A stretch of DNA of 64,000 nucleotides, taken from assembly GCA_964474895.1 (NCBI GenBank), contig CAYYUK010000001.1, positions 13,994-77,993 of the forward strand. Reading direction: 5' to 3'. The position numbers and the translations under genes were made by a program. Origin of the DNA: Candidatus Woesearchaeota archaeon. Lineage in GTDB: Archaea > Nanobdellota > Nanobdellia > SCGC-AAA011-G17 > PNOQ01. The notes under the pieces are model-generated. The model was given only the letters and a program-made list of their open reading frames with translations, was not told where the DNA came from and did no database searches. Positions 24,464-58,316 of this stretch are shown piece after piece. Each line of letters begins with the position of its first letter. The stretch's first letter is position 1.

Positions 24464-25513
24464 TTAGAAACCTACATCTTCTTCAGGCGTGGTTTCTTCC
24501 TCAACTATTTTGGTTGGTACTGAATCTCCAAGTTCTTCTATTCTTGCAATTTCTTCTTCAGAAAAATTCCTTTTTACATTTCTAGTACCCTTTCCACCAT
24601 TTAATGTCTTTTCTTGTTCTAAGAACCATTGGATCCATGCATCATGATTTCTATCTTCTATTTCAACTATTGGAAATTGCATTAGTTCTACTTCTTCGTT
24701 TATTATTACCCCTTTTGGAGAATTTACTCTCTTTATCACATAATCATTCGGATTTAGTCCAATTTGCTCTATTATTAATTCTGGATTTTCTAAAAATCCT
24801 TGGAATGCTGCGGCTCTTGCCATGGTGCAAGAAGGATATCCATACTCTCCCCTCTTAACATTGCTTTCAAATCTATACACTAAACTCTCGTTTGGTATTC
24901 CATATTCTTTTCCTTGTAAATTCAAGATTATGCTTAATGGTACTTTAACTTCTGCTATTGTTCCCCTTTCTGCTAATTCCTTAAATAACTCAGACATTGT
25001 TAAATTAAAATTCTCGGATTGCACTCCGAAAAAAATATGTCTGAAAAGATTAAACTGAGTTTTGAAATTTGGAAGTCTCTGTTGGACTTTTCTGTATTTT
25101 CTTATTTGCCCGTCAAAAAGATGACAAGCTTGTCCGAACCTCCAAGCTTTTGATTCCCAAACTAATTTATCTTTTAGATTAATTCCATCAGGTTTTGTGT
25201 GTTCATCTGCGTCTTCGCAATCTAAAAATTGTTCTAGCCCCTCAAATAAATCTAGTTGATCAGGATTTCCAAAAAAAATCCTATTTAATACAGTCCCCCC
25301 ATAGAACGCCTTGGACACTCCTTCATAAAAATCTCCCATTGTCACATGACTTGCTGGTTTTTGATTACCATAGAGATCATAAATTAGGGGTATTGTTGCA
25401 GAATATTTCTTGGGATCCATTACTCCTTGATGTTTGTTTATTATCCCTTCTAGTATTTCATTAAACTTTGGGCATTCATGTATTCCTATTTTCTTGGAAT
25501 TTCCTCTAGACAT
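24464..25513 (-). CDS. conserved hypothetical protein (349 aa)
   Basis: Long well-formed ORF with acidic C-terminus; no motif recognised. Confidence 0.55.
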   Translation of the reverse strand: MSRGNSKKIGIHECPKFNEILEGIINKHQGVMDPKKYSATIPLIYDLYGNQKPASHVTMGDFYEGVSKAFYGGTVLNRIFFGNPDQLDLFEGLEQFLDCEDADEHTKPDGINLKDKLVWESKAWRFGQACHLFDGQIRKYRKVQQRLPNFKTQFNLFRHIFFGVQSENFNLTMSELFKELAERGTIAEVKVPLSIILNLQGKEYGIPNESLVYRFESNVKRGEYGYPSCTMARAAAFQGFLENPELIIEQIGLNPNDYVIKRVNSPKGVIINEEVELMQFPIVEIEDRNHDAWIQWFLEQEKTLNGGKGTRNVKRNFSEEEIARIEELGDSVPTKIVEEETTPEEDVGF

Positions 25514-25788: not shown

Positions 25789-26022
25789 ATGAAATCATAT
25801 CTTTTCATAGCAACTAGTTCCGAGGAAGAGCAAAAAGTAGTAGAAAGTATACAACAATTTCCAGAGGTATTAAAGGCAAATATAGTTTTTGGAGAATGGG
25901 ATATTGTTGCTTTGTTGGAAACTGAGTCTCCAGAGAAACTTGGTAGTTTTGTTATGGAAAAAATAAGAAAATTGCCAGAAGTAAGATTAACTAGTACTAT
26001 GATCTTGTGGGATTCAGATTAA
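25789..26022 (+). CDS. Lrp/AsnC ligand-binding (RAM) domain-like small protein
   Basis: 77-aa ORF resembling stand-alone RAM domains. Confidence 0.4.
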   Translation: MKSYLFIATSSEEEQKVVESIQQFPEVLKANIVFGEWDIVALLETESPEKLGSFVMEKIRKLPEVRLTSTMILWDSD

Positions 26023-26348
26023 CTGATTTTTGAACCTGGTGAAATATCTTTGTCTACAGTTAGAAGTACTACTTTGTCACCTTCTGATGCTGCAAATAAC
26101 ATTCCTTCACTTTTTACCCCTCTTAGTACTGCTGGTTCTAAATTAGTAAAAACTATTATTTTTTTACCTTTTAATTCTTCTTTTGTATAATTATTTTTTA
26201 TACCTGCAACTATTGTTCTTTCTTCTTCACCAAGATTTATTTTTATTACATATAGTTTGTCTGCATTTGGGTGATCTTGCACATCAAGTATTTCTGCTAC
26301 TCTTATGTCTAAATTTTGCCAATCTTTGAATTCAATTTTGTTTACCAT
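26019..26348 (-). CDS. stand-alone tRNA-binding domain protein (Trbp111/MetRS C-terminal domain-like)
   Basis: OB-fold tRNA-binding domain pattern (DIRVAEILDV..HPNADKLYV..I..GEE.R.IVAG); directly downstream of metG. Confidence 0.75.
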   Translation of the reverse strand: MVNKIEFKDWQNLDIRVAEILDVQDHPNADKLYVIKINLGEEERTIVAGIKNNYTKEELKGKKIIVFTNLEPAVLRGVKSEGMLFAASEGDKVVLLTVDKDISPGSKIS

Positions 26349-26399: not shown

Positions 26400-28127
26400 T
26401 TAATTAAAAAAACCTTTTAAATCAATTCCTTTTGAAGACTCCCTTTTGTAAGACCCAACATCCTCTTTCTTAAGTTTTTTGAAAAGTATTTCTTGGTTTC
26501 CTATTTGGTGCGTTTTGTCAAATTCAGATAAAGAGTTATTCCATGCATTTGCATCTAGTGGAGATCCTTCTAATCCTAACTGGCTCCATACCTTTTCAGA
26601 AGTTTCTGGGATAAATGGTGCGATATATGTTGTTAGTGCCTTGAGTAATCTTGCACCAACGTAGATTATGTCGTTTGTTCTTTGCATATCTTCTTTTAAT
26701 GTAATCCAAGGAGCAGAATCATTAATGTATTTATTTCCAAGGCTGGATAATGCTAAAACTTCAGAATATGCCTTTCTTATCTCAGACTTTTCTAAATAGC
26801 CTTCAATTCTTTTTTTATACTCTTTTACTTCATTTAATACAGAATTATCTAATTCGTTGAGCCTACTCTCATCGGGCCTTTCTATTATTCCCTCAAGCCT
26901 ATCACTTGTAAATTTAACTATCCTGTTAACAAAATTACCAAAATTATCAATCAAATCAGAATTAGTTCTTTCTATAAACTCCTCCCATTTAAATTCAGAA
27001 TCGTTTGATTCTGGAATAACTTGGGTTAGATATGCTCTCCAAATGTCTGCATCTAAGCCTAATTTTGGAAGTGTTTCGCAAAATACCCCTACTTGCTTGC
27101 TTTTTGAAAACTTTTTTCCTTCATAATTCAGATATTGTAATCCTACAACATTTGTTGGTAGATTGAATTGCTCTGTACCGATTATCATTCCTGGCCAGAA
27201 AATGGTGTGGAAAGGTATGTTATCTTTTCCTAAAAAGTTGTAAATTTGACTATCTCCTGTCCAAAAAGATTTCCATTTATCTGTGGCTTCTTTTGTGGAA
27301 GAAATATATCCCATTGGAGCATCAAACCATACATAGAATACCTTATCTTCATACCCTTTCAATGGTACTTGGATACCGTTCTTTAAGTCTCTAGTTATGC
27401 ATCTTTCTCTTAATCCCTCTTTAATCCATCCCATTGCTAAATTTTTTACTTGTGGTCTCCAATGTGTTTGTTTTTCTATCCAGTGCTCTATTTCTGGGGA
27501 TAATTTATCTAATGCAAGAAATAAATGCTTACTTTCCCTAACTTCTATTTTTTCTCCAGTTATCGTAGACTTTGGATTTTTTAATTCATGTGCATCCAAA
27601 AGGGATGTACAGCTTTCACATTGATCACCTGTTGCACTTTTATAATCGCACTTAGGACATTCTCCAATAACGTATCGATCTGGTAAAAACATGTCATCAT
27701 TAGGGGAATAAAAAACAGGCATTATACCCTCATTGATTAATCCTTTTTCATTTAATCTCTTAAAAAAAGAAGTAACTACCTTTTTATGGGTGTCACTCGA
27801 TGTTCTAGAAAAATGATCGTAAGAAATCCCAAACCAGTCATATACTTTTTTGTGTTCTTCATGTAACTTATCTGAAAATGTTTTTAAGTCCACCCCAACT
27901 TGGGATGCTGCTATTTCTGAAGCAGACCCATGTTCATCTGTTGCGCCAACAAACAGTGTTTTAAATCCCTTAGACCTGCAATATCTAGCAAAAATATCTG
28001 CTGGAAGGTGAGATCCTGCAATATGGCCAAGGTGTGGAACATTATTTATATAAGGCAGGGCTGCCGTAACTAGCCTTCTCCTTCCTGAATATCCACTATT
28101 TACCATGGTTTCTAAGTTATCTTTCAT
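26400..28127 (-). CDS. metG: methionyl-tRNA synthetase (catalytic core plus anticodon-binding)
   Basis: HIGH motif PYINNVPHLGHI, KMSKS-like KFSKSK, knuckle Cys clusters CPKCD...CESC. Confidence 0.9.
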   Translation of the reverse strand: MKDNLETMVNSGYSGRRRLVTAALPYINNVPHLGHIAGSHLPADIFARYCRSKGFKTLFVGATDEHGSASEIAASQVGVDLKTFSDKLHEEHKKVYDWFGISYDHFSRTSSDTHKKVVTSFFKRLNEKGLINEGIMPVFYSPNDDMFLPDRYVIGECPKCDYKSATGDQCESCTSLLDAHELKNPKSTITGEKIEVRESKHLFLALDKLSPEIEHWIEKQTHWRPQVKNLAMGWIKEGLRERCITRDLKNGIQVPLKGYEDKVFYVWFDAPMGYISSTKEATDKWKSFWTGDSQIYNFLGKDNIPFHTIFWPGMIIGTEQFNLPTNVVGLQYLNYEGKKFSKSKQVGVFCETLPKLGLDADIWRAYLTQVIPESNDSEFKWEEFIERTNSDLIDNFGNFVNRIVKFTSDRLEGIIERPDESRLNELDNSVLNEVKEYKKRIEGYLEKSEIRKAYSEVLALSSLGNKYINDSAPWITLKEDMQRTNDIIYVGARLLKALTTYIAPFIPETSEKVWSQLGLEGSPLDANAWNNSLSEFDKTHQIGNQEILFKKLKKEDVGSYKRESSKGIDLKGFFN

Positions 28128-28172: not shown

Positions 28173-29093
28173 TTATTCGGAAGTGGTTAATAATCTTTTG
28201 GATATTTTTTCGTAATCTTTGTTATCCCATACTCTTTTTTTTAATGAATAAATTATCTTAGCAAAGGATTTAATATCGTTTTCAATTAAATTCCTTCCAA
28301 AAAATAATATTAAATACTCTACCGAATCAATTTTTTCTAATTTTTTCAGAAGTATCTTGCTTTGAGAGATAACTTCCAGAGAATTATTTAATTCCGGAAA
28401 AATTTTGATTAGTATTTTTGATCTAAAAATTTGTTTTACTAACTTACTTTTGTGTTTAGAATAAGAAATTGTCCTAAATATTGAAGAAATTAGAGACCTG
28501 TATTCTTTTGTATTTTTTCCTTTACTGATGTTGTAGTTAATTTCATTTATTATAGACTTTGTTTTCTTTGAACTTAAAGAGATATTGTATTTTGAGCACA
28601 AATAAATTAGTCTCGAAAATAAAATAAATGGATCTTCGTTGTTTTTGTTAATAATTAGTTGTATGTTTTTAGTTTTTACACCTTCAAGAGATTTATGATT
28701 ATCAATTAGCTCAAAACTTGGATATTTTAGACATAAAGTATCAATATTGTAATGCCCCACAGACTCTGGATTTTTTAAAAATGCTAAATCTAATTTTAGA
28801 TTATCTTTATTGGCTTGCATTAGTATTGCTCTTTTGTTTTTGTAGATTATATATTTTCTCGGTTCTTGAATAATTTTGTATCCATTTCTAGTTAGGTGCT
28901 TTTTGCATTCATTTATCTTTTTTTTATTTAATCCTTTAATGTTAATATCAATATCTCTATAATTAATCTTTTTTGATAATAATAAGTTGATTAATATGCC
29001 TCCGCAAATTACGAAGTTATCTAATCCTGTGTCGTTTTCTAATTTTTTTGCTAATTTTTTTATATTTTGCGGAATTATTTTTTGTTTTGCCAT
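28173..29093 (-). CDS. hypothetical protein, possible Pol-beta-superfamily nucleotidyltransferase
   Basis: CGG-x14-DIDI then later hDh (LKLDLAF), reminiscent of the GS...DxD NTase motif; very K/N/I-rich and low GC. Confidence 0.35.
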   Translation of the reverse strand: MAKQKIIPQNIKKLAKKLENDTGLDNFVICGGILINLLLSKKINYRDIDINIKGLNKKKINECKKHLTRNGYKIIQEPRKYIIYKNKRAILMQANKDNLKLDLAFLKNPESVGHYNIDTLCLKYPSFELIDNHKSLEGVKTKNIQLIINKNNEDPFILFSRLIYLCSKYNISLSSKKTKSIINEINYNISKGKNTKEYRSLISSIFRTISYSKHKSKLVKQIFRSKILIKIFPELNNSLEVISQSKILLKKLEKIDSVEYLILFFGRNLIENDIKSFAKIIYSLKKRVWDNKDYEKISKRLLTTSE

Positions 29094-30733
29094 ATTTCTT
29101 TATCAAATACCTTTTTTTGGTTGATTAGGATTTTTATAGTTTCTTTAGCAAATTTTTTATTATAGTGTGGAGAAACAGGATATATCTTTATAGCTGAAAT
29201 TTTATTTCCTTTGTAATTGATATATGACGAGCTGAAAGAATAATTTGGGCTATTGTTATTTTTTAAAATTCTTGTTTTGTAATCCCAAAGATAAAATTCT
29301 TTTATGTACTTACTTATTACTGGAATGTCTTTTTTCGGTAAATCTTCATTTGTAGTCTTACTTATTTCAGGTGGAAATAATCTTACCATTGTGGCAAAGC
29401 CATTTGAAAAAATATTTATGATAGATATATCTTTTCTATTATTAAGGAGTTCTCTAATTAACTGAGTATTCTCTACCAGATTTGATAAATTTCTTTGATA
29501 TCCTTCAATTCCGAGAAAATTTAGCGATGCTAGTGCTGCCAATGCAGCCCCCGCATTTCTTGAAGTTTCTAGCGTATAATCTGCAGGAGATATATAATTA
29601 ATCTCTCTTGCTAGTTGATGCATCTCTAGTTCAGGATTATTTGTTTTAGATAAGTATGCCAAGTCTGAAGTTTTGTTGAACATAATTATACTACTATTCA
29701 CTGGGCACCCTCCTATACCCTTGTGAAAGTCAACTCCCCAACTATCAGCATATTTTAATTGGGAAATTTTTAGATATTGTTTTTTTATTTTCTCTAAGCA
29801 ATTTTTTGATAAATTTAAATTATTTTTTTTAAAGTCATACTCTTTGAAAAATAACCAACCCCATCCAATTACGGAGTCTACATGAATATGCGGGGTGTAT
29901 TTTAGAGAATATTTTTTTACTAATTTGTCTCTAATCTCTATAAATTTTTTAATTTCATCTACTGTGTGATCATATGTGGTCCCCCCATTTAATAAAATTG
30001 AAGTTACAATATTTCCCTTCTTAAGTTCTTTTTCAAGTTTTATCGAAAAGTCATCAATATTACTAGTTCTATCTTTGTTTGCAATTATTTTTATAATTTT
30101 AGCTGTACCAATTCCTAACCAATCTGCACTTAATGAATGAGTAAAATGTGAATCTTCTGTCACAAATATTCTTACATTTTTGGGAACTCCTTTTTTATCT
30201 GCCCCTGGGCAATTCTTCTTTAACCCCACTTTTGTTGCGTAAAGATTGGTAGCTGTCCCTCCAAAAACAAATAATCCTGAACCTGGTTTTTTTAGGTCTG
30301 CTAACTTAGACAATATTCTTGTTATTGCTTTTTCAGCAACAAGTGCGTTTCCTGCCAGACCTTCATCAATAGAATAAATATTTTCATCTAAAGCAAGAGA
30401 GTATATTGCGGAAGAGGGTGTATTTACTGCAGACCCAACATTATACTGGAGTAATGGACTTCTCCAACGAAGGATACCTTGAAATAAATCACTTACAATT
30501 TTAGAAGAGGATTTTAGTGGGTCACTTGGTTTTTTTGGGATTGTGGAGTACTTATTTATTAAATTATTGTAATAATCCTTTCCAAACTTGCCACCTATTC
30601 TTGGAGATAATGAATTTGGGATCTTATGATTTAAAATTTTAAAATATTCTTTTAGAAAATGTGGGAGTTCATTATCTTTATATTTTAAAGGATAATATTT
30701 TCTGATTTTTTCGTATATTGATTTAATCTTCAT
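29075..30733 (-). CDS. PLP-dependent group II decarboxylase-like enzyme (fold type I)
   Basis: FVFGGTATNLYA, HIHVDSVIGWGW and candidate PLP-lysine motif SWGVDFHKGIGG match DDC/GAD/SPL-family signatures. Confidence 0.6.
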   Translation of the reverse strand: MKIKSIYEKIRKYYPLKYKDNELPHFLKEYFKILNHKIPNSLSPRIGGKFGKDYYNNLINKYSTIPKKPSDPLKSSSKIVSDLFQGILRWRSPLLQYNVGSAVNTPSSAIYSLALDENIYSIDEGLAGNALVAEKAITRILSKLADLKKPGSGLFVFGGTATNLYATKVGLKKNCPGADKKGVPKNVRIFVTEDSHFTHSLSADWLGIGTAKIIKIIANKDRTSNIDDFSIKLEKELKKGNIVTSILLNGGTTYDHTVDEIKKFIEIRDKLVKKYSLKYTPHIHVDSVIGWGWLFFKEYDFKKNNLNLSKNCLEKIKKQYLKISQLKYADSWGVDFHKGIGGCPVNSSIIMFNKTSDLAYLSKTNNPELEMHQLAREINYISPADYTLETSRNAGAALAALASLNFLGIEGYQRNLSNLVENTQLIRELLNNRKDISIINIFSNGFATMVRLFPPEISKTTNEDLPKKDIPVISKYIKEFYLWDYKTRILKNNNSPNYSFSSSYINYKGNKISAIKIYPVSPHYNKKFAKETIKILINQKKVFDKEIWQNKK

Positions 30734-31770
30734 TTTATGTAGGGGAATAAAGATTTGTTTGTTTTTATTTGTTTTCCCAAAACTATATCGTTAATTAATT
30801 TTAACCCTGCTAAGTAATAATATAAAACTCTTTTTTTATTTGGTTTTTCCTTTCTTGCATGGTATGAAGAAAAACTAATTGCATGAAATCCTGCCAAAAG
30901 CAGTAATTTTCTTAATTTGTTTTTTGGGATCTTATCAATATATTTGTCCTGTAGATATGCATATCTCCTTCCTATACTTTCTTTTGTTAGTTCTATTGAA
31001 ATCTTGTTCTTAGATTTGTTTAGTGAAAAATAATCTTCATGCACTTCGTCGTACCTAGTTATCAAGTGACAAATCATTTTAGATTCATCGTAATCTACGC
31101 TTCCAATAGTTTCGCCTCTTGGATCTATTAAAATAAACTCATTTTTATCGGCAAGTATGTTTGCAGTATGAAAATTACCGTGAAATAATGTTAGATATTT
31201 TGGATTCATTAAATTAACTAATTTTTTATCTTTTTTTAATAACTCAATTAGGCTATATATATTTGTTAGCTCATCCCCGTTTAAGAATGTGTTTGATTTC
31301 AAGATATCTTTATAATATTCATCTTTTTCAAGAATTTTTAGTGCAGAATTTAGCCTATTGAAATAAGCTTTTTTCAAATAATTTTTTTTTAATGTTGTTT
31401 TCTTTTGAGTATACAGGTTCTCTTTCATGAATAATGTAACCTTTTCTATATCTTTCCAAATTTGAATTTTATTAATTTTTTTATCTAAAAGTTGATCTGT
31501 TATTGAGGGAATTGTATGATAAGATAGTAAAAGTGAAAATGAATTTTTATCATTTAATTTTTCAAGAATTTTTGGGAAATAATGTCTTAATTCTTTTGGG
31601 AGATTTTCTAAATAGATTGCTTCTTTTTTTAATTTTTCTATCCCTCTTGGATCTTTTCCTTTATAACTTTTAATTATATAGTCATCACAAAGATATATCT
31701 TAGATAGTGATCCTCCTTTGAACTCCTTTTTTCTTTTATTTTTTAAAAGAAGTTTTAAGATTGAAGCCAT
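30730..31770 (-). CDS. APH/choline-ethanolamine-kinase-fold small-molecule kinase
   Basis: Brenner motif HGNFHTANIL and downstream ILIDPRGETIGSVDYDESKM (Dxx/DxD); N-terminal K-containing lobe. Confidence 0.55.
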   Translation of the reverse strand: MASILKLLLKNKRKKEFKGGSLSKIYLCDDYIIKSYKGKDPRGIEKLKKEAIYLENLPKELRHYFPKILEKLNDKNSFSLLLSYHTIPSITDQLLDKKINKIQIWKDIEKVTLFMKENLYTQKKTTLKKNYLKKAYFNRLNSALKILEKDEYYKDILKSNTFLNGDELTNIYSLIELLKKDKKLVNLMNPKYLTLFHGNFHTANILADKNEFILIDPRGETIGSVDYDESKMICHLITRYDEVHEDYFSLNKSKNKISIELTKESIGRRYAYLQDKYIDKIPKNKLRKLLLLAGFHAISFSSYHARKEKPNKKRVLYYYLAGLKLINDIVLGKQIKTNKSLFPYIK

Positions 31771-31854: not shown

Positions 31855-32334
31855 TTATTCGACTTGTGTTGTTATGGAACCTGTCTTTGTGTGGTCCAAA
31901 CCGCCTGCTCCAGTATAACCAAATACAACATCTCCCTTAAACTTACTTCCTGTTGCACCTATTCCTGTACAGTCTGTTGCTCCCCACGTTGTTAGGATCC
32001 CATCTGGCATCGTATCTGTATCAGTGCATCCATCAGTACATGTTAATGAACTAGTACATACTGCAGTACCCCCATCCGGATCTGTAATTGTAACTGTTAC
32101 AGCATCTAAGTCATCACCCATTCCGTTTCTTAACGTCAGAGTAATTGATGTGGCATCTTCAGCAACAACGAAGTCTTCACACGATATACCAGGAGTTATT
32201 GTACAACTTGCAGGTAAGAATCTTCCAGGACTTAATGCTCCAAAATATGCTAAAGCAGATATTGCCACTAAAACCACCAAGATGGCCCAGCCATAAGTCA
32301 TTAAGAACTCCATGGCTGCTTGTCCTCTTTTCAT
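31855..32334 (-). CDS. archaeal type IV pilin-like protein (class III signal peptide)
   Basis: N-terminus MKRGQAAMEFLMTYGWAILVVLVAI = basic KRGQ|A prepilin-peptidase site plus hydrophobic helix; Thr/Gly/Asp/Cys-rich mature part; GC far above neighbours. Confidence 0.65.
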   Translation of the reverse strand: MKRGQAAMEFLMTYGWAILVVLVAISALAYFGALSPGRFLPASCTITPGISCEDFVVAEDATSITLTLRNGMGDDLDAVTVTITDPDGGTAVCTSSLTCTDGCTDTDTMPDGILTTWGATDCTGIGATGSKFKGDVVFGYTGAGGLDHTKTGSITTQVE

Positions 32335-57817: not shown

Positions 57818-57933
57818 GTTTTACTTAGTTTTTTGTAAATTAAAAACTTTTTTGTTCTTGTTTTGTTAAAATAACAAGGTTTATAAAGTTTTAATTTTAA
57901 AATTTGCATGTAAATCATACTTTGATTTAGCAA

Positions 57934-57939
57934 AGGAGG
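57934..57939 (+). promoter_or_regulatory. Shine-Dalgarno AGGAGG 8 nt upstream of the basic repeat protein gene
   Basis: Near-perfect anti-SD complement at ideal spacing. Confidence 0.55.
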
Positions 57940-57947
57940 AAAAATAA

Positions 57948-58253
57948 ATGGTAGCTGCAAGAAGAACTACAAAAAGAAAAACTGCAAGAAGAACTACAGC
58001 ACGTAGAACTGTTGCAAAAAGAAAGACAGCAACACGAAGAACTGCTGTTAAGAAAAGAACTACTGCACGAAGAACTACTGCAAAAAGAGCTGTAAGAAGA
58101 ACAACGGCTAAGAGAGCTGTAAGAAGAACAACAGCACGTAGAACTACTGCAAAAAAAGCTGTAAGAAGAACAACAGCTAAGAGAGCTGCAGGAAGAACTA
58201 CTGCAAAGAGAAGAACTACTGCACGTAGAACAGCTGTAAGAAGGAGAAGATAG
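57948..58253 (+). CDS. highly basic low-complexity repeat protein (RRTTAK(R/K)AV repeats)
   Basis: 101 aa, about 45% Arg+Lys, roughly 10 tandem 9-aa repeats (27-nt DNA repeats); TATA-like box and strong SD upstream. Confidence 0.6.
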   Translation: MVAARRTTKRKTARRTTARRTVAKRKTATRRTAVKKRTTARRTTAKRAVRRTTAKRAVRRTTARRTTAKKAVRRTTAKRAAGRTTAKRRTTARRTAVRRRR

Positions 58254-58316
58254 TTTCTCCTTTATTTTTTTTCTTATCAAAACTTATTTATATCCCAATT
58301 TTTATTTTCAGTTAGT

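Follow-up and report, generated by a model that had tools for sequence, protein, structure and literature searches.

A predicted PLP decarboxylase and nucleotidyltransferase encoded beside methionyl-tRNA synthetase in Woesearchaeota, Patescibacteria and actinomycetes

In lactic acid bacteria, an aminoacyl-tRNA synthetase (aaRS) gene can adjoin the gene of its cognate decarboxylase, as in the tyrS-tdcA-tyrP-nhaC tyramine clusters, and hisS beside histamine clusters is implied to be an apparently analogous case (PMC3315439). In FR-900098 biosynthesis, FrbH unites a MobA-like cytidylyltransferase with a PLP decarboxylase whose substrate is a CMP-linked amino acid: the nucleotide is attached through the side-chain phosph(on)ate, and decarboxylation follows (PMC6697681, PMC8007912). 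Here, we analyze a three-gene cluster in a 64-kb stretch of DNA (the window) from a very small marine archaeon of the Woesearchaeota that resembles both systems in part. Biosynthetic genes are scarce in CPR bacteria and DPANN archaea, and the majority of the non-translational genes that these groups conserve are still without explanation.

The cluster consists of three co-directional, overlapping genes lying exactly where the first-pass annotation had placed them (Table 1), and they encode a kinase-like protein, a predicted decarboxylase (DEC1) and a predicted nucleotidyltransferase (NTase; P3). The kinase and DEC1 genes overlap by 4 nt and the DEC1 and P3 genes by 19 nt, and 45 nt separate the P3 gene from the start of the next gene downstream, the co-directional gene for methionyl-tRNA synthetase (MetRS). 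As context only, we note that a tRNA_bind protein gene, 91% identical in the sister genome, follows MetRS on the same strand. All previously quoted motifs are present, that is, HGNFHTANIL (aa 197-206), IDPRGE (aa 215-220) and DYDE (aa 226-229) in the kinase, FGGTATNLYA (aa 157-166), HVDSV (aa 284-288) and DFHKG (aa 335-339, with Lys338) in DEC1, and GG (aa 31-32), DIDI (aa 47-50) and LDLAF (aa 101-105) in P3; because they fall on invariant columns of the family alignments (A1, A2 and A3), they are not chance matches. The earlier calls of an APH fold, a group II decarboxylase and a Pol-beta NTase fold hold at the superfamily level. The neighboring pilin-like and Lon_C genes, once offered as a functional clue, are kept only in the sister genome and not in other lineages, and their adjacency therefore carries no functional signal.

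Table 1 Features of the cluster and its MetRS flank, in window coordinates
Feature	Position	Strand	Length (aa)	Description
Kinase	30730..31770	-	346	APH/choline-kinase-fold protein
Degenerate Brenner motif of kinase	31153..31182	-		H197-G-N199-F-H-T-A-N204
DEC1	29075..30733	-	552	Predicted group II (fold-type I) PLP-dependent decarboxylase
P3	28173..29093	-	306	Predicted Pol-beta nucleotidyltransferase, class II CCA-adding/poly(A)-polymerase architecture
MetRS	26400..28127	-	575	Pfam tRNA-synt_1g/Anticodon
tRNA_bind (Trbp111-like) protein	26019..26348	-	109	PF01588 on identical gene in L001

Judged by its sequence, DEC1 is a predicted group II PLP decarboxylase in a distinct conserved clade that matches no characterised enzyme. 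It passes the Pfam gathering score for PF00282 (35.1 bits; GA 27), a domain precomputed on most of its homologues, and it matches GAD67 in the PDB (3vp6, E 6e-10), with the family profile extending to 2qma (E 3e-21). Models of characterised decarboxylases (DABA, Tyr, Asp, His, Glu) all scored far below their cutoffs, the best NCBIfam match being the DABA decarboxylase model NF052646 at 62.7 bits with a cutoff of 900. The homologues number more than 300, and mean column identity in A2, which includes archaeal and bacterial members, is 56%. K338 (DFHK, the PLP lysine), D286 (HVDS, the pyridine-N Asp) and H196 (SHF, the ring-stacking His) do not vary in A2 and have counterparts at the aligned positions of GAD67 and 2qma. 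In group II decarboxylases, a catalytic-loop Tyr, Tyr332 in DOPA decarboxylase, protonates C-alpha; the corresponding column in A2 is variable (Y/L/F/T/A/R/H), the loop alignment being uncertain, and the DEC1 of the window has a Tyr in DLAYLSK. His372, near that column, is nearly invariant.

P3 is predicted from its structure model to be a Pol-beta NTase with the architecture of class II CCA-adding enzymes and poly(A) polymerases (PAP). The model shows the head-neck-body fold of these enzymes, bearing out the NTase relationship suggested before, and stops after the body helices, with none of the C-terminal tail domain that holds tRNA (306 aa vs 344-517 aa in the matched enzymes). The top structural matches are all tRNA or RNA 3'-end NTases (4wby, 3wfo, 1miv, 1ou5, 3aql), and ANT/Lnu-type antibiotic NTases, to which P3 had been likened, are not its closest relatives. 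G31, D47 and D49 of motif A (GG...DxD) and the third catalytic carboxylate, D102, are invariant among 43 sequences, as are E153 and R287. Motif B (RRD) and motif D (EDxxR), which select ribose and base, are absent from the family; the consensus at these sites reads GxFNIxSLY and ENPYLLxSRF, and the window protein has NEDPFIL and no Arg. The gene is extremely divergent, to the point of being hypervariable: no Pfam or NCBIfam model matched the window protein, and weak PF01743 matches occur in 8/43 family members (best 5e-6).

The kinase-like protein belongs to a small family (15 clusters found) and has the bilobal, eukaryotic-protein-kinase-like fold of the APH/ChoK type, complete with a Gly-rich loop (GGS, 19-21), Lys34, Glu50 and the Mg-binding Asp216. 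A3 shows no variation at G20, E50 and D216 and hardly any at G19 and K34. The Brenner motif was correctly recognized but is not intact, since Asn199 occupies the position of the catalytic Asp of HxDxxxxN, where it aligns with the Asp of HGD in the 5-methylthioribose (MTR) kinase MtnK; 12/13 family members have Asn here. An Asp-to-Asn exchange has been used experimentally to inactivate such kinases (PDB 8i80, 'Cph001-D189N'), and from its sequence the protein may be weakly active or perform a different chemistry. Among Pfam models only APH_6_hur was reported, at 18.2 bits vs 27, and PF01636 was not. MtnK is the nearest sequence relative (E 1e-5). Homologues elsewhere lie beside an SDR and an IF-2B/MtnA-like gene, PRK and a LOG-like gene, or PurF and a class III aminotransferase. 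One homologue sits within a defence island.

The core of the module is the DEC1 clade, almost always beside MetRS and paired with P3 or a MobA-like NTase. In 25/33 loci from Woesearchaeota, Patescibacteria and actinomycetes, no more than 10 kb separates MetRS from DEC1, for which the chance probability is about 1e-30 under the assumption of independent loci. This linkage recurs in at least five gene orders and with MetRS types mutually only 21-40% identical. LeuRS takes its place at one locus (L018), and no MetRS was found nearby at the Paenibacillus locus and at two CPR loci with full flanks. The sister clade DEC2 lies beside TyrRS in 27/47 loci, with GT1/GT4, HAD and canonical HGD APH genes as neighbors and no P3. 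DEC1 and P3 are encoded side by side or in overlapping genes in 23/33 loci and form a single protein in two cases (P0052, 855 aa; P0188, 839 aa). In eight CPR loci a PF12804 MobA-like NTase replaces P3; the two NTases are not homologous, and the exchange argues for small-molecule nucleotidyl transfer as the activity that is required. Other P3 fusions are with GT2 (P0202, P0210 and Solirubrobacter WP_169542196) or with a histidine phosphatase (P0143). GT2 or GT4, HAD, His_Phos and APH genes recur beside the DEC1/NTase pair, and the frequent accessories comprise glycosyltransferases, HAD/histidine/PHP phosphatases, NHL propellers and APH-type kinases. In Paenibacillus curdlanolyticus, a sugar-1-P NTase separates the pair and NAD-epimerase-like ORFs lie alongside; similar ORFs occur in Streptomyces (L024) and Solirubrobacter (L019), all recognized by N-terminal sequence. 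The first-pass logic of small-molecule activation by kinase, NTase and decarboxylase fits these fusions and neighbors elsewhere; the cross-domain MetRS linkage, which is the main pattern, was absent from that annotation, as were the Asp-to-Asn change and the divergence of the NTase gene.

The three genes are found together in five or more lineages (the window, its sister genome and three contigs that bear the homologue pairs P0126/P0005, P0127/P0007 and P0131/P0008, the kinase/DEC1 pairing being deduced for two of the three from contigs of matching length), and the order kinase, DEC1, P3 is shared by the window, the sister genome and the P0131 contig. The DEC1/NTase pair is typical of Woesearchaeota/Nanoarchaeia and Patescibacteria, at odds with the earlier remark that it would be unexpected in a minimal DPANN-type genome. 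We tentatively regard the three genes with MetRS as a lineage-specific form of a module that is widespread and uncharacterised.

As the best reading, to which we assign a probability of roughly 0.4, we propose by analogy a model whereby a Met-type amino acid would be decarboxylated and nucleotide-activated for a glycoconjugate. In this model, DEC1 would remove the alpha-carboxyl group of methionine or of a similar amino acid, for example an S-substituted homocysteine or one with an activated side chain; this assignment is inferred from gene adjacency and analogy, the adjacent aaRS being taken to mark the amino acid consumed, in parallel with tyrS-tdc and the TyrRS-linked DEC2. The NTase would join an NMP to a phosphate-bearing small-molecule intermediate to give an NDP-linked unit, supplied in phosphorylated form by the APH-fold protein in the Woesearchaeota-type lineage. 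Either kinase, NTase and decarboxylase would act in this order, as in FrbH, or the decarboxylase would act first. A ribose-type hydroxyl would be the likeliest kinase target because the kinase homologues lie among ribose/nucleotide genes and their nearest relative is an MTR kinase. Finally, glycosyltransferases, encoded next door in other lineages and not in this window, would pass the activated amine-bearing unit to a glycoconjugate. The folds and catalytic residues, the adjacencies and fusions, the NTase swap, the MetRS and TyrRS linkages and the two precedents introduced above argue for this model. Against it, methionine offers no hydroxyl group for phosphorylation or nucleotidylation, which makes the kinase and NTase roles hard to fit; the nearest structural relatives of P3 act on RNA 3' ends and not on small molecules; the kinase lacks its catalytic Asp; the DEC1 catalytic-loop Tyr is not clearly conserved; L018 has LeuRS, and Paenibacillus and two CPR loci are without MetRS. 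Moreover, the 64-kb window encodes no glycosyltransferase, phosphatase or second NTase, nor any MobA/NTP_transferase or GT2 relative of the accessory families.

The structural matches of P3 would also fit a tRNA-directed system, in which P3 would have the 3' end of tRNA(Met) or of another RNA as its substrate. The PLP enzyme would transform tRNA- or nucleotide-carried Met, by analogy with PSTK/SepSecS or SepRS/SepCysS; the charged tRNA would come from MetRS, and the target of the kinase would be a tRNA-bound intermediate. The tight linkage of the decarboxylase clades to MetRS and TyrRS and the presence at some loci of RNA-related neighbors (a MiaB/MtaB-like methylthiotransferase, a LigT 2H phosphoesterase and a methyltransferase) agree with such a system. 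Nevertheless, we consider it unlikely: neither the tail domain nor the motif B RRD nor the EDxxR Arg is present in P3, which also occurs as fusions with GT2 and histidine phosphatase and is missing from DEC2 loci that have TyrRS, and alpha-decarboxylation is not possible on an esterified amino acid. P3 is, furthermore, swapped at eight loci for an NTase of the MobA-like family, which acts on small-molecule phosphates. Such substrates are documented for LicC, PntC and FrbH (PMC6697681). More specifically, P3 and the MetRS-linked PLP enzyme could act on tRNA(Met), Met-tRNA or nucleotide-bound Met, as a new tRNA- or nucleotide-dependent amino-acid transformation by a truncated class II CCA-type enzyme with the TyrRS-linked clade as a second instance, which we think distinctly unlikely. 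In archaea, DPANN included, CCA addition is normally the task of class I enzymes.

It is improbable that the module makes an antimetabolite against MetRS, in the form of a nucleotide conjugate derived from an amino acid, and that the neighboring MetRS serves as the self-resistant target copy, comparable to mupirocin-, albomycin- and agrocin-type clusters. Decarboxylase and NTase chemistry does finish microcin C-type adenylate mimics, and the actinomycete cluster MetRS looks like a divergent extra copy, with KFSTS for KMSKS and HLGN for HIGH, 35-40% identity to archaeal-type copies (window, L009, L014, L015, L017) and only 29-32% to CPR types. However, MetRS in CPR and DPANN is canonical and probably the only copy, the window enzyme having HLGH, KFSKS and the Met-pocket and anticodon-binding residues; very different MetRS types lie beside near-identical decarboxylases, unlike the co-transfer of a resistant allele; and no recurrent exporter or peptide precursor was found beside DEC1.

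The aaRS-decarboxylase adjacency is a hallmark of tyrS-tdc clusters (PMC3315439) and could mark a simple operon for biogenic amines or acid stress as in lactic acid bacteria, made up of aaRS, decarboxylase and antiporter genes, with the kinase and NTase as unrelated neighbors. We find this hard to credit: no amino acid/amine antiporter or transporter recurs in the 33 DEC1 and 47 DEC2 loci, glycosyltransferases and phosphatases recurring instead, and the NTase gene overlaps or is fused to that of the decarboxylase.

GC content of the three genes (0.239, 0.297 and 0.254) is indeed lower than that of the window ORFs (0.327 +/- 0.032, n = 78), as reported in the first-pass annotation. The deficit is at codon positions 1 and 2 because the proteins are rich in K/N/I/Y/F (fraction 0.41-0.48 vs about 0.32). 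Despite this low GC, the hypervariable P3 and the defence-island kinase homologue, a recently acquired foreign island or anti-phage cassette is very improbable and largely refuted, since GC3 (0.20-0.22) is native, most other window ORFs having roughly 0.2-0.25, the sister genome (88% identity) has the cluster at the same position in the same order between flanks 71-91% identical, no integrase or repeats are associated with it, and PADLOC defence models gave 0 hits to all three proteins.

The module is common to CPR and DPANN, includes a protein family without a database model and is genomically tied to one aaRS. If a Met-derived, nucleotide-activated surface decoration is its product, it would be a candidate determinant of episymbiont attachment to hosts and would give the CCA-adding-enzyme fold a new biochemical role. 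The pairing of two sister decarboxylase clades with MetRS and TyrRS would offer a simple rule for substrate prediction. Because the module is also present in the culturable Kitasatospora cystarginea JCM 7356, Solirubrobacter soli DSM 22325 and Paenibacillus curdlanolyticus YK9, it is open to genetics.

The tyramine clusters of lactic acid bacteria share with the module a class I/II aaRS beside a decarboxylase (PLP or pyruvoyl) that acts, in the module by prediction, on the same amino acid. Unlike them, the module has no antiporter, its partners are NTases, glycosyltransferases, phosphatases and kinases, its hosts are DPANN, CPR and actinomycetes, and its decarboxylase clades score 28-70 bits against tyr_de_CO2_Ent (cutoff 905), the TdcA model. 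In comparison with LicA-LicC-LicD/Kennedy-type activation, the module kinase lacks the catalytic Asp, the decarboxylase is integral, and no LicC-type (NTP_transferase) or LicD gene was noted in the window, LicC-like NTases lying beside the module only in other lineages. The kinase shares the segment HG-x-hHTxxI...IDP with MtnK (TIGR01767; 2olc, 2pyw), its best sequence-level relative, and one family member lies beside an IF-2B/MtnA-like gene; it differs in scoring 24.8 bits against the TIGR01767 equivalog cutoff of 275, in its Asn for Asp and in the absence of other methionine-salvage genes from the window. Compared with class II tRNA nucleotidyltransferases and bacterial poly(A) polymerase (PF01743), P3 is about 100 residues shorter and tail-less, lacks RRD and the templating Arg of EDxxR and stays below the Pfam threshold, and it is found in archaea and fused to decarboxylase, GT2 or phosphatase. 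FrbH differs from the module in its NTase, which is MobA-like where P3 has a predicted Pol-beta/class II CCA-like fold, and in lacking an aaRS linkage, and no phosphonate genes are among the annotated neighbor families of the module. The PLP residues of FrbH are in an aminotransferase-type domain (PMC8007912) and not in a PF00282 group II domain as in DEC1. Like FrbH, DEC1 and its NTase appear to work as a unit, DEC1 having a PF12804 NTase as its neighbor in 8 loci and P3 as neighbor or fusion partner in 23.

The most informative feature of the three-gene cluster is its linkage to an aminoacyl-tRNA synthetase (aaRS) gene, which lies outside the stretch singled out by the first-pass annotation. 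The best supported model, to which we tentatively assign a probability of roughly 0.4, is one whereby the 552-aa group II PLP decarboxylase would act on a methionine-type amino acid, a nucleotidyltransferase (NTase; here P3, the product of the third gene) would make a nucleotide-activated intermediate, the APH/choline-kinase-fold protein would supply phosphate where required, and glycosyltransferases would pass the unit to a glycoconjugate. We favor this model because of two precedents, the exchange of one NTase for another, and fusions to glycosyltransferases and phosphatases; folds, catalytic residues, adjacencies and fusions are observed, and its substrate, step order, nucleotide and acceptor are inferred.

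The three ORFs occupy the positions on the minus strand proposed by the first-pass annotation, and every motif it quoted was found and mapped. Kinase and decarboxylase genes overlap by 4 nt and decarboxylase and P3 genes by 19 nt. A Trbp111-like tRNA_bind gene comes after the methionyl-tRNA synthetase (MetRS) gene, and TopoVI, MCM, aIF and ribosomal genes flank the cluster, the host being a DPANN archaeon.

Coordinates of the cluster genes in the window and of two example loci of DEC2, the sister clade of the decarboxylase
Feature	Position	Strand	Length	Remark
Kinase ORF	30730..31770	minus	346 aa	
Decarboxylase ORF	29075..30733	minus	552 aa	
P3 ORF	28173..29093	minus	306 aa	
MetRS	26400..28127	minus		begins 45 nt downstream of P3
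DEC2 locus	L041:8635-9798			
DEC2 locus	L044:5447-11090			

The decarboxylase passes the PF00282 gathering score (35.1 versus 27), and all NCBIfam equivalogs are far off, the nearest, DABA decarboxylase, scoring 62.7 bits where the cutoff is 900. Its clade, DEC1, has more than 300 homologues, with at least 43% identity among the 120 matches listed and a mean column identity of 56%, from Nanoarchaeia/Woesearchaeota, Patescibacteria, Streptomyces, Kitasatospora, Solirubrobacter, Pseudonocardiaceae and Paenibacillus. Lys338 (PLP), Asp286 and His196 are invariant in the family and align to GAD67 and 2qma, and conservation of the catalytic-loop Tyr, canonical in group II decarboxylases, is not clear. 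The solved Streptomyces L-methionine decarboxylase, which should match if it belonged to DEC1, is absent among PDB hits at E <= 1e-5, a negative that counts only if the library includes its entry.

Searching species-representative genomes with the decarboxylase alignment turned up 77 loci, whose family-HMM scores are bimodal and separate DEC1 from DEC2. In 25 of the 33 loci of the DEC1 set, which includes the window and metagenome loci, MetRS is encoded no more than 10 kb from the decarboxylase, and five of the eight loci lacking a near MetRS are short contigs. The chance probability of this linkage is ~1e-30 assuming independent loci, a figure that overstates the evidence. Gene orders include MetRS-DEC-P3, DEC-P3 with convergent MetRS, kinase-DEC-P3-MetRS, DEC-MobA-MetRS and, in actinomycetes, DEC, GT2, P3, His-phosphatase and MetRS (DEC, decarboxylase). 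The adjoining MetRS types share a mutual identity of only 21-40%; because they are so divergent, the linkage looks, from sequence comparison, to be under selection rather than inherited by simple co-transfer. At the Patescibacteria locus L018:2185-6867, the pair of DEC1 and a MobA-like NTase adjoins LeuRS (with editing domain), not MetRS. DEC2 (47 loci, L041-L087; decarboxylases of ~550 aa) occurs in many Streptomyces, in Saccharibacteria, Peribacteria, Pacearchaeota and Vampirovibrio, and in one Helarchaeota genome. TyrRS (tRNA-synt_1b plus S4) adjoins it in 27/47 loci, and genes recurring nearby encode GT1/GT4, HAD or fusions of HAD with GT4, and an APH kinase with a canonical HGD. A riboswitch and T-box search of nine bacterial loci returned tRNAs only and therefore gave no ligand clue, and literature searches on aaRS-decarboxylase adjacency in CPR/DPANN, on MetRS paralogues accompanied by a decarboxylase and an NTase, and on CCA-enzyme homologues in gene clusters returned nothing relevant.

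As a single sequence, P3 had no match in Pfam, in NCBIfam or among PDB sequences, and a word-indexed homology search returned P3 alone; an exhaustive HMMER scan recovered 90 cluster representatives, in the alignment of which G31, D47, D49, D102, E153 and R287 are invariant. The family profile matches poly(A) polymerase from E. coli (E 9e-4), the PolyA_pol head domain is weakly hit by 8 of 43 members, and AF2 predicts the P3 structure with high confidence (pLDDT 93.5). Neither the tail domain nor the motif B RRD is present in P3, and its EDxxR motif is without the Arg. From these losses and its class II relatives we conclude that P3 is an NTase of the class II CCA/PAP-like kind, truncated and divergent, and not the ANT/Lnu-type enzyme suggested earlier; within the CCA-enzyme fold it represents an undescribed branch. 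Mean column identity across the P3 family is 33%, versus 56% for the decarboxylase. The P3 gene (L005:9641-10567 in the sister genome) is a strong rate outlier: its window and sister copies share 39% identity, 16 other syntenic genes being 71-91% identical (decarboxylase 88%, kinase 80%, MetRS 89%). This divergence may reflect either very fast evolution or exchange/allele replacement between lineages.

Its structural relatives and the aaRS linkage would both suit a tRNA-directed role for P3, the main rival to our model, which we nevertheless consider unlikely, given that tail and templating motifs are missing, that a MobA-like PF12804 NTase stands in for P3 in eight CPR loci, and that P3 is fused to other enzymes. 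P3 is adjacent or fused to DEC1 in 23/33 loci, and fusions join it to the decarboxylase (P0052, P0188), to GT2 (P0202, P0210) and, in P0143, to a histidine phosphatase.

Other recurrent DEC1 neighbors are likewise GT2 or GT4 glycosyltransferases and HAD, His_Phos or PHP phosphatases; an NHL beta-propeller, APH-type kinases from different subfamilies, a radical SAM enzyme resembling MiaB/MtaB, a methyltransferase and a LigT-like phosphoesterase also recur. The Paenibacillus locus holds a sugar-1-P nucleotidylyltransferase, confirmed by NCBIfam, and NAD-epimerase-like ORFs (by N-terminal sequence only), similar to ones in Streptomyces L024. In seven loci (L010, L012-L014, L016, L023, L033; e.g. 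L014:7492-8520), the NTase gene is followed by a highly conserved 326-346-aa protein without a Pfam match, rich in invariant His and Asp, which in a PDB profile search resembles NHL-repeat beta-propellers; at L036:1554-2390 the decarboxylase is followed by a canonical NHL propeller. The recurrent neighbor f4, considered as a hidden relative of the window kinase and rejected (hhalign probability 0.7%), is an NHL-repeat beta-propeller. The 64-kb window itself contains no match to GT2, MobA-NTase, NHL propeller, MiaB-like, APH f6 (a neighbor family), HAD or His_Phos.

Actinomycete-cluster MetRS (L019, L024, L025, L027-L029; e.g. L027:14471-16225) carry HLGN for HIGH and KFSTS for KMSKS, retain Met-pocket and anticodon-binding residues, and are 35-40% identical to archaeal-type copies versus 29-32% to CPR types; they are probably extra (second) copies. 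Antimetabolite biosynthesis with a resistant MetRS strikes us as improbable, and a plain biogenic-amine operon as, if anything, more doubtful.

In our model of amino acid activation, the kinase would be called upon where phosphate is required. Its sequence matches are marginal (MTR kinase TIGR01767, E 1e-5; 2olc, E 0.034). The family keeps the Gly loop together with Lys34, Glu50, Asn204 and Asp216, and 12 of 13 members have Asn in place of the catalytic Brenner-motif Asp; the family is small, with 15 clusters found and only two loci from a metagenome scan with the kinase alignment. The order kinase-decarboxylase-P3 was observed in the window, the sister genome and the P0131 contig; for two further kinase/decarboxylase pairs a shared contig is deduced from contigs of equal length. 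One homologue, P0133, has an SDR on one side and a SIR2_2+IF-2B fusion (MtnA-like) on the other, another lies beside SDR, PRK and a LOG-like gene, and a third (L090:2707-6611) sits between a gene for a PurF-like amidophosphoribosyltransferase and one for a class III aminotransferase; these ribose and nucleotide contexts make a substrate of ribose type a reasonable guess. L090 is also a second instance of the kinase family paired with a PLP enzyme. The island around P0133 (L089:7306-15302) also encodes QatB, a KAP NTPase, a recombinase and a QueC-like protein, surroundings that look like a defence island.

The first-pass annotation had found a real cluster and called its folds largely correctly, but its framing as a low-GC island is wrong. 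GC of the three genes is 0.24-0.30 versus 0.327 +/- 0.032 for 78 window ORFs, the shortfall sitting in codon positions 1 and 2 because the proteins are K/N/I/Y/F-rich; GC3 (0.20-0.22) is similar in the majority of other window ORFs. The sister genome, labelled Candidatus Woesearchaeota, has the same genes at the same site and in the same order between flanking genes of 71-91% identity, so the cluster was not imported recently as an island. With native GC3, this synteny and no PADLOC defence match for the three proteins, we dropped a foreign or defence island as scarcely credible. Near the otherwise syntenic block, gene content has changed locally: the window has a 349-aa ORF without Pfam match (24464-25513) where the sister has adenylosuccinate synthetase (L005:13281-14513), and it is missing the HD-domain gene between the sister's TopoVI B and A genes (L005:15715-16299). 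The 'pilin' ORF beside the cluster (31855-32334) has no Pfam hit; its N-terminus (MKRGQAAMEFLMTYGWAILVV...) resembles, by eye, an archaeal class III (type IV pilin-like) signal peptide, and it is 77% identical in the sister genome and does not adjoin the module in other lineages. A 117-aa minus-strand ORF whose composition by codon position is extreme (57927-58280; GC1 0.10, GC2 0.70) is probably not a real gene, or is a low-complexity/antisense artefact.

As neither CbiB/CobS nor GT-C partners turned up, we dropped cobamide aminopropanol-phosphate (PduX/CobD/CobY logic) and methylthioxylose-type sugar routes. The module, which is widespread in CPR and DPANN, would follow a known logic of small-molecule activation and is built partly on the undescribed CCA-enzyme-fold branch. 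The DEC1-MetRS pairing resembles tyrS-tdc of lactic acid bacteria, in which an aaRS gene lies beside a decarboxylase using the same amino acid; hisS is implied next to histamine clusters, and the aaRS has been suggested to protect tRNA charging during amino-acid drain (PMC3315439). Similarly, the pairing of DEC1 with an NTase resembles FrbH of FR-900098 biosynthesis, a MobA-like NTase joined to a PLP decarboxylase, where a CMP-linked amino acid is decarboxylated (PMC6697681; PMC8007912).
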